Source: Escherichia coli (GTDB taxonomy: Bacteria > Pseudomonadota > Gammaproteobacteria > Enterobacterales > Enterobacteriaceae). Taken from it: a stretch of DNA of 64,000 nt. The position numbers and the translations under genes are program-made. The notes under the pieces were generated by a model. The model did not search any database and was not told the origin of the DNA. It saw nothing but the letters and a program-made list of their open reading frames with translations. This document shows, one piece after another, positions 6,077 through 9,148 of this stretch; position 1 is the stretch's first letter; each line of letters begins with the position of its first letter. Where the stretch lies: assembly GCF_044324875.1 (NCBI RefSeq), contig NZ_CP172185.1; one strand, given 5' to 3'.

Positions 6077-6286
6077 GGCAAGGATCTATATTTATTATGC
6101 GGTAATGCTTTCACTCCGGTAATTAATTTCAGTGATTAACTGCTTTCGATCAATAAAGGAATTGCAAAAAGGTGATCTTGTTCACGACATTGTGGATGAT
6201 AATATGCCTGATGTCTGAATCCGGAAACAGTGCTCTGGCGGGTTTCATGGTAAGCGTACAGCGAGGGCCGTATTGACGGGGATGTG

Positions 6287-7825
6287 TTATTCAGCTGGCA
6301 GTGCTATGCGCCACGGAAGCAGTTCGCTGACCCGGTTGACCGGCCAGTCTGCTATGACGCCAAGCACATGGCGAAGGTAGCTTTCTGGATCCACGTCATT
6401 CAGTTTGCACGTCCCTATCAGGCTGTACAGTAGCGCTCCCCGCTCACCACCATGGCCAGAGCCGAAGAACAGGAAGTTTTTACGACCCAGACTTACCGCC
6501 CGCAGGGCATTTTCAGCGATGTTGTTGTCGATTTCCACCCAGCCATCGTTCGCATAGTACGTCAGTGCCGGCCACTGGTTAAGTGCGTACGCGAACGCCT
6601 TCGCCAACTCTGAGTGTCGCGACAGGGTCTTCATCTTTTCACGCAACCAGCTTTCCAGGGATTTCAACAGCGGTTTCGTTTTTCGCTGACGTTCAGCAAG
6701 CCGCTGCTCTGCCGGCATTCCCCTTATATCCGCCTCTATGGCGTACAACTGACCGATCTGCTCCAGGGCTTCTTCCGTCAGTGCTGACGGGATGCGGACG
6801 TGCACATCGTGGATCTTTCGGCGGGCATGAGCCCAGCAGGCAGCTTCCGTTATCCCACCATTGCGATACAGCTCGTTGAACCCGGCGTACGCATCCGCTT
6901 GCAGCACACCGCTGAAGCAAGCAAGATGAGTCTGCGGATGGATGCCTTTTCTGTCCGGGCTGTAAGCGAACCACACTGCAGGTGCCAACGCTGACCCGGC
7001 ATTGCGGTCATCACGAACATACGCCCACAACCGCCCGGTCTTCGTCTTCTTATTACCCGGCATCAGTACCTGGACCGGGGTATCATCGGCATGGAGTTTG
7101 CCGTCAGTCATGACATAGCCATGAAGCGCCTCTTCCAGCGGAGACAGCAGCCGGCAGCATGCATCCACCCAGCCCGACAGCAGTGAACGGCTCAGCTCCA
7201 CACCTTGCCGGCCGTATATTTCTGACTGGCGATACAGCGGGGTGTGCTCTGCATACTTCGAGGTCAGCACGCGGGCCAGCAGCCCCGGTCCGGCGATACC
7301 CCGCTCGATGGGCCGCGAAGGTGCAGGTGCCTGCACGATGGCATCGCACTGAGTACAGGCATGTTTTTCCCGTACCGTCCGGATAACCCGGAAGGCGCTA
7401 CGCATCAACTCCAGCTGTTCGGCGGTATCCTCGCCCAGATAGCTCAGTGAACCGCCGCAGTTCGGGCAGCACGGCGCCGCAGGCAACAGTCGCTTTTCGT
7501 CACGGGGTAGTGATTCAGGGAACGGCTTACGGATGCGGGTCTGACGCAACGGACGCTGTACTGCCGGGTCATACACCCTACCAGTCAGCGTATCGCTCTC
7601 TTTCTGAAGCTGGTTCAGATCGGCTTCCATTTGTGCGATACGGCGGGAGACTTTTTCGGAACGACTGCCGAAGTTCATCCGGCGGAGTTTATCCAGCTGC
7701 GCCTGCAGATGGTCTATTTCGCGCTCCCGGTTGCTCAGCTTTTCCTGCAGGGCGTGGATCAGCGCTTCCTGTTCGGCCAGGCGCTGTTTCAGCAGGAAGA
7801 TGTCGTCAGAAGAGATGTCGTTCAT
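6287..7825 (-). CDS. IS66-family transposase (TnpC / Orf3)
   Basis: 512 aa with N-terminal coiled coil and a cysteine cluster (CCPNCGG...CTQC) typical of IS66 TnpC. Confidence 0.9.
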
Positions 7826-7874
7826 AAGCCCGTATTTTACCGGGCTTATTCTGTGACAACCAGGATAAAGAGAT

Positions 7875-8222
7875 TTACAGCATGGTCAGGGAGGTCAGCA
7901 GCCGCTTAGGCTGTCGCCAGTCGATACCTTCCAGCAGCATCGCCAGCTGCGCCTGTGTAAGGAACACTTTGCCATCACGGGCTGACGGCCAGGCGAAGCG
8001 CCCACGCTCCAGCCGTTTGGTCAGGAGGCACAGTCCGTCACCGGTGGACCACAGCAGTTTAACCTGACTGCCGCTGCGGCCCCGGAAAATGAAAACATGG
8101 CCGGACATGGGATCGTCTTTCAGCGCCGTCTGTACTTTCGCAGCCAGGCCGTTGAAGCCATTTCTCATATCGGTGATACCGGCAACCAGCCAAATTTTGG
8201 TCCCGGAAGGTAAAGGGATCAT
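7875..8222 (-). CDS. IS66 Orf2 (TnpB) accessory protein
   Basis: 115 aa, [27 protein letters not shown]... typical IS66 Orf2; overlaps Orf1 by 4 bp. Confidence 0.85.
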
Positions 8223-8620
8223 CGCTTCAGTTCCTGTATCAGCAGAGTCAGGAGCTTTTCGCTGACATTGCCATTGAAGCGGAGCGTCCCGTGCCGGAAC
8301 GTTACCTCACAGCTGATACTGAGGGTTTCCGGGTCCTCTGCGAGCGATTCTGGCTGTTCGGCAGCTGCATCGAGAGTCACAGGAAGTAGCTGGGGGCTCT
8401 CTGAAGAAGGTAATAGCAGCTTTCCCTCGCGCCATTGTTGTCGCCATTTGAACAACAGATTGGCGTTAATGCCATTTTCAAGAGCAAGTTTTGAGATGGA
8501 TATCCCGGGTTCACAGGAGGCAGCAACGAGCTGCTGTTTAAATTCGGGAGGATAATTAGGGCAGCCTTTTCGCCTGCCGGGAGTCACATTTTTCTGCATA
8601 TCTGACACTTTGGTTCCCAC
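8219..8620 (-). CDS. IS66 Orf1 (TnpA) accessory protein
   Basis: 133 aa, typical IS66 Orf1; first gene of the element. Confidence 0.85.
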   Translation of the reverse strand: MGTKVSDMQKNVTPGRRKGCPNYPPEFKQQLVAASCEPGISISKLALENGINANLLFKWRQQWREGKLLLPSSESPQLLPVTLDAAAEQPESLAEDPETLSISCEVTFRHGTLRFNGNVSEKLLTLLIQELKR

Positions 8621-9148
8621 TACTTATTTGGTGGACACCACTTTGTCTAATTCGTCAGATTCTGACCAGACGGTTCAGGCTGTACGCTTACGTTTCATGT
8701 GAAGTTGACGGATAAAAAATCCGCACGACCAGACAGACGTGCGGTTTACGAAATTCGTAACAAGAGGCTTTTCTACGGATCACGTGGTGCGTGCCACGTG
8801 TACGTCTGCATTCCTCGTTTTGAACAGAATTCTCACCAGACATCGTGAATTTCTCATTCAATCATCAGAGATATTACCCAGGATTTTTATTGTTTTGTGA
8901 TATCAGCAGTGCAGGTATACAGACATTAAAGTAATCAGGTTTATTATAACCACCTTTACAAAGTTGTATGTGTTTATAATTTAAGGATTTTAATGCCAGT
9001 CGTTTTCTGCTGCTTAAATTGAGGTCGCATATTATACACAATAATATTCCTGACATTATTAAATTAATAAAAGAGGATTCTTATCACTGTATTTTTGCTC
9101 CGCACTACCGTTCTGGCTGGTGAAGTAATAATACAGGAGAATAACAGA

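Follow-up and report, generated by a model that had tools for sequence, protein, structure and literature searches.

The window, a 64,000-nucleotide stretch of an Escherichia coli contig (NZ_CP172185.1), carries a complete insertion sequence near the right end of a lambdoid prophage. We conclude that an intact ISEc8 transposed between a DUF4376 gene and a YadA-like (Eib-type) adhesin gene, in a prophage that lies beside btsS on the E. coli chromosome. We put the probability of this reading at about 97%, and no observation contradicts it. The reading draws on the observed anatomy of the element, its identity as ISEc8, the duplicated target and the empty site.

Anatomy of the element

Reading of the sequence and a script check place the element, 2442 bp long, at window positions 6250-8691. 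The features of the insertion are the following.

6242..6249, no strand: left 8-bp target-site duplication GTTTCATG; same as 8692-8699, and single-copy in six uninterrupted loci
6250..8691, minus strand: complete ISEc8 (IS66 family), 2442 bp; 100% identity, over the full length, to annotated ISEc8 copies
6250..6271, no strand: IRR, terminal inverted repeat at the tnpC-distal end, starting GTAAGCGTACAGC; repeat pair of 22 nt, 82%, first 13 nt exact
6287..7825, minus strand: tnpC, IS66-family DDE transposase, 512 aa; NCBIfam NF033517, 457 bits against a cutoff of 180
7875..8222, minus strand: tnpB, IS66 accessory protein, 115 aa; NCBIfam NF033819, 120 bits against a cutoff of 50
8219..8599, minus strand: tnpA, IS66 accessory protein with a helix-turn-helix; NCBIfam NF047595, 97.4 bits against a cutoff of 74
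8670..8691, no strand: IRL, terminal inverted repeat at the tnpA-proximal end; repeat finder and script check
8692..8699, no strand: right 8-bp target-site duplication GTTTCATG; script check and empty-site alignment

A sequence-only reading of the same DNA had described a 2442-bp element with inverted repeats, flanked by identical 8-bp direct repeats, and we found both at these positions. GTAAGCGTACAGC occupies 6250-6262 and its reverse complement 8679-8691, with 13 of 13 nucleotides exact; over the 22 nt (82%) reported by the repeat finder, 18 match. Each terminal 13-mer is single-copy in the 64-kb window. Because the genes of the element lie on the minus strand, its left end in the window is the transposase-distal end (IRR). 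A copy of GTTTCATG stands immediately next to each end of the element. The chance that two fixed positions hold the same 8-mer is 4^-8 (~1.5e-5), and this 8-mer occurs once more in the 64-kb window, at 1264. The element is the sole ISEc8 copy in the window, and no other fragment of it is present there.

The element is filled by three intact ORFs on the minus strand, with lengths of 133 aa (126 aa from the ATG), 115 aa and 512 aa. Two starts are available for tnpA: the ATG at 8599 (126 aa) and an upstream GTG at 8620 (133 aa). For identical copies, PGAP gives a tnpA of 381 bp (126 aa), which matches the ATG at 8599. The ATG of tnpB overlaps the stop codon of tnpA (TGA) as ATGA (8222-8219). TnpC contains the Pfam domains LZ_Tnp_IS66 (PF13007), zf-IS66 (PF13005), DDE_Tnp_IS66 (PF03050) and DDE_Tnp_IS66_C (PF13817), of which PF03050 is matched over its full length (E = 1.6e-106). 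The CWAHARR motif is seen in the TnpC translation, and the tnpC DNA is identical to the gene for WP_000997962.1. The three ORFs, the NCBIfam matches to TnpA, TnpB and the transposase above their cutoffs, and the Pfam domains bear out the IS66 orf1-orf2-orf3 arrangement that had been read from the letters.

Identity of the element

In ISfinder, the IS66 family is defined by terminal inverted repeats of ~15-30 bp that begin 5'-GTAAGCG, as the published definition of the family reportedly also has it. In the window, GTAAGCGTACAGC is exact at both ends and the repeats extend to 18 of 22 nucleotides. The element is flanked by an 8-bp target-site duplication, and its genes run tnpA-tnpB-tnpC, the start of tnpB overlapping the stop codon of tnpA. 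TnpC has the leucine zipper, the zinc finger, DDE_Tnp_IS66 and the C-terminal element of the family.

To name the element, we compared it by megablast with 5426 complete E. coli genomes. Full-length matches of 100% identity were found on many E. coli chromosomes and plasmids, and the matched copies carry the NCBI annotation 'IS66-like element ISEc8 family transposase / TnpA / TnpB'. There were 0 mismatches to three separately extracted ISEc8 copies; for comparison, the ISfinder rule for isoforms is at least 95% nucleotide identity to the reference entry. Of the 5426 genomes, 3334 hold a copy that spans 80% or more of the element, with a median of 4 places per genome having any match. In an older annotation of ISEc8, the ORFs L0013, L0014 and L0015 are 133, 115 and 512 aa long (PMC2762410), and the ORF lengths in the window are the same. 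Judged by the NCBI annotation of identical copies and by these published ORF sizes, the element is ISEc8, where the sequence-only reading had expected something ISEc8-like. ISEc8 is a very common and well understood mobile element of E. coli.

Empty site and target-site duplication

The sequence-only reading had proposed a simple transposition and had suggested related prophages without the IS as a check. We ran this comparison by rebuilding the empty site in silico, removing the element together with one 8-mer, and searching for the result in E. coli genomes. The rebuilt site was matched in 372 genomes; most of these align only from query position 308 onward, like strains APEC O2-211 and 2013C-4991. 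Six uninterrupted loci were examined (B771, LR-31, GF4, LH50-c, APEC O2-211 and 2013C-4991), and each reads GGCGG-GTTTCATG-TGAAG with one 8-mer. B771, LR-31 and GF4, aligned with the IS-deleted window, read ...CTCTGGCGG GTTTCATG TGAAGTTGACGG... with no further difference near the junction. The alignment shows a single GTTTCATG in LH50-c, APEC O2-211 and 2013C-4991 as well. The prophage end of the window recurs in LH50-c, at the corresponding chromosomal position next to btsS and without the IS.

Because the 8-mer is single in all six uninterrupted loci, the flanking repeats are a true target-site duplication. One could suppose instead that the 8-mers are a pre-existing or chance repeat and that the element arrived by homologous recombination or within a larger unit. 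Nothing speaks for this beyond the a priori possibility raised by the sequence-only reading, and it is refuted by six empty sites, each of which holds exactly one 8-mer and aligns colinearly with the window after removal of exactly 2442 + 8 bp; we give it practically no weight. The proposed simple transposition with an 8-bp duplication therefore stood up in all six otherwise identical contexts.

The same length of duplication was found at other insertions. Nine of nine other ISEc8 copies, with 0-1 mismatch to the window copy, are flanked by exact 8-bp duplications of nine different sequences, which argues that an 8-bp duplication is the rule for this element and that its target is not sequence-specific. 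IS66-family elements caught in functional transposition traps likewise have a direct repeat of 8 (PMC3281130, Table 2).

The insertion in the window would have followed the usual course for such an element. TnpC (DDE, zinc finger, leucine zipper), with TnpA and TnpB, would recognise the terminal inverted repeats that begin GTAAGCG, the element would be joined to DNA cut at GTTTCATG with an 8-bp stagger, whose repair would leave the flanking 8-bp duplication. In the IS66 family, transposition would depend on the element's own proteins working at its ends; the intact ORFs and the private, unmutated insertion are indirectly in line with this. The transposition chemistry and the roles of TnpA, TnpB and TnpC are taken here from knowledge of the IS66 family.

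Prophage setting

The gene order around the element was obtained by annotation transfer from strains B771 and LH50-c. It runs gpJ, two small genes, a tail-fibre gene, the DUF4376 gene, the IS, the YadA-like adhesin gene, a sigma-factor-like gene, a DinI-like gene and btsS. The neighbours with transferred annotations are as follows.

5461-6036: DUF4376 tail-fibre-associated gene
9149-10378: YadA-like (Eib-type) adhesin gene
10437-10892: sigma-factor-like helix-turn-helix gene
12013-13713: btsS, chromosomal

The IS lies in an intergenic region of 662 bp, 213 nt after the DUF4376 stop codon and 449 nt before the adhesin ATG. The transferred annotation agrees with the earlier placement of the insertion between the tail-fibre module and the adhesin/regulator cargo. 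The empty-site segment from DUF4376 to the adhesin (positions 6001-7133 of locus L001) found no match when 50,697 deposited phage genomes were searched by megablast, so the evidence for a prophage comes from the gpJ and tail-fibre genes next to it and from annotation transfer. This segment is common in E. coli prophage regions despite the lack of a match among deposited phages. The tail-fibre ORF (4117-5445) encodes 442 aa, compared with ~601-604 aa for the genes annotated 'prophage tail fiber N-terminal domain' in B771 and LH50-c; the difference would reflect either a shorter form of the gene or another start.

The YadA-like trimeric autotransporter gene (9149-10378) has an in-frame stop codon at 9926-9928, which the sequence-only reading did not mention. 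The translation reads DETRT*TDSSVR in the window and DETRTYTDSSVR in LH50-c. Since the stop removes the C-terminal membrane anchor of the adhesin, the gene is a pseudogene. APEC O2-211 and 2013C-4991 (loci L014 and L015, each at 2501-3898) carry the same intergenic segment with a truncated 5' YadA-like piece of 188 aa that is annotated 'hypothetical protein'. In these two strains the segment adjoins sul2 and IS fragments in chromosomal resistance islands.

Several observations concern the chromosomal part of the window. The btsS/yehL-yehQ stretch (11300-24000) has 96-97% identity to the best of the 5426 E. coli genomes, and the gat/fbaB/yegT stretch (46500-58500) has 99.2% identity among the same genomes. 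The stretch next to the prophage is locally divergent, and it may have been imported by recombination. Its lower identity had raised the idea of a host other than E. coli, which was rejected on the strength of the 99.2% in the gat/fbaB/yegT stretch. Two matches to the OrzO-P antitoxin RNA lie on the minus strand at 22190-22265 and 22800-22873 (101 and 92 bits, against a gathering score of 60), a sign that this chromosomal part holds a tandem zorO-orzO type I toxin-antitoxin pair. The sRNA CyaR/RyeE (62965-63050, minus strand) and a TPP riboswitch (45905-46001, plus strand) score well above their gathering scores and are ordinary features of the E. coli chromosome.

The target and its flanking hairpins

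No CDS is annotated at the target in the six uninterrupted genomes. The only ORF crossing it is a mechanical 91-aa ORF with a TTG start; PGAP does not call it, and a terminator hairpin lies within it. Many of the empty-site matches are labelled 'hypothetical protein', which was considered as a target gene and rejected: the label belongs to the truncated 5' YadA-like fragment, well to the right of the target. An Rfam search of the uninterrupted intergenic region at permissive E-values returned only two hits, both at chance level (E = 0.12 and 0.79) and well short of the gathering scores. Consensus scans for promoters and terminators gave counts no higher than in shuffled sequence, with the exception of the hairpin at 6076..6051.

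This GC-rich hairpin (6051-6076, z-score -3.5) had been described as lying just outside the left end of the IS. The hairpin exists, but 173 nt separate it from the IS, and the minus strand carries its T-run. Given this orientation, it would stop IS transcripts running in the tnpC direction before they enter the tail genes as antisense. The consensus scan did not pick up a second minus-strand hairpin (8744..8721, z-score -3.2), which has a T-run at 8714-8719 and a 10-nt loop and is located just beyond the tnpA-proximal end. The two minus-strand hairpins bracket the target and are ~190 nt apart in the empty site; no gene and no Rfam family was found between them. The intergenic segment around the target is 97-100% conserved in different genomic contexts.

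Age and consequence of the insertion

We searched for the occupied site in other genomes. It was found in 0 of the 5426 complete E. coli genomes, where a 400-nt query across the left junction matched either its IS half or its flank half and never both, and in 0 of 100,044 species-representative genomes searched with an exact 48-nt junction pattern. Because the junction is absent from both sets, the insertion is private to this strain among the genomes searched and probably recent. No mutations are seen in the inverted repeats, the duplications or the ORFs, which also points to a recent insertion by a competent element. It is highly improbable that the copy is instead a dead relic, an old immobile insertion kept by drift alone. 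That the window holds a single copy would fit such a relic. Against it stand the intact state of all three ORFs, the complete sequence identity to copies found across many chromosomes and plasmids, the absence of mutations from both inverted repeats and both duplications, and the result that no other sequenced genome searched is occupied at this site. The intact ORFs and this sequence identity suggest an ISEc8 copy that is competent and would be active.

The insertion breaks no annotated gene or known RNA, and it is most likely neutral or nearly so. The alternative, that it has a regulatory consequence, is unlikely. Three routes could be imagined: the adhesin and sigma-like regulator genes could be uncoupled from read-through of the phage late operon, an outward promoter could be supplied from the tnpA-proximal end, or an unannotated minus-strand transcript between the two terminator-like hairpins could be destroyed. 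The distances of the IS from its neighbours (449 nt to the adhesin start that follows it, 213 nt back to the last tail gene) are compatible with such effects, as are the placement of the target between minus-strand hairpins with T-runs (6076..6051, z -3.5, and 8744..8721, z -3.2) and the 97-100% conservation of the surrounding segment across differing genomic contexts. Recent horizontal spread, however, explains this conservation equally easily. No gene or RNA family was found at the target, promoter-like sites are no commoner there than in shuffled sequence, and the only spanning ORF is the 91-aa TTG ORF with a terminator hairpin inside, absent from the PGAP calls. Moreover, because the adhesin gene already has an in-frame stop, altered expression of this neighbour is unlikely to matter and would have little phenotypic effect. 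It is very unlikely, more specifically, that the target between the hairpins encodes an unannotated small transcript or is part of a control region of the Eib-type adhesin cassette; if it did, ISEc8 would have knocked out a regulatory element in nature, and the insertion would not be neutral.

Beyond correct annotation, the insertion has little significance. The appropriate label for the element is ISEc8, with its 8-bp duplication, and the intergenic sequence on its two sides is to be treated as one stretch of 662 bp. Being specific to this strain, the insertion could be used as a marker for typing or for following lineages. It shows, along with the stop codon in the neighbouring adhesin gene, that the cargo end of the prophage is decaying.

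Comparison with known systems

An ISEc8 insertion in a prophage gene has been documented in E. coli O157 strain 9000, as stx2a::ISEc8 (PMC6776261, PMC5359411). The same IS has entered E. coli prophage cargo DNA in both cases. In stx2a::ISEc8 it interrupts a coding sequence and abolishes toxin production, whereas the insertion in the window is intergenic and most likely neutral or nearly so. ISEc8 insertions in prophage DNA are already documented, and only the insertion site is new.

The element itself matches ISEc8 in its length of 2442 bp, its sequence, its ORF sizes, its terminal repeats and its 8-bp duplication, and nothing within it differs; the site of insertion alone sets it apart. The first annotation of ISEc8 was under the names L0013-L0015, next to the LEE island of E. 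coli O157:H7 EDL933. IS679 and IS66 are prototype three-gene elements of the IS66 family. They resemble the window copy in gene order (tnpA-tnpB-tnpC), in the ATGA overlap of the first two genes, in terminal repeats that start GTAAGCG and in the 8-bp duplication. They are, however, distinct and longer elements (~2.5-2.7 kb) with divergent sequences, and ISEc8 is a separate member of the family.
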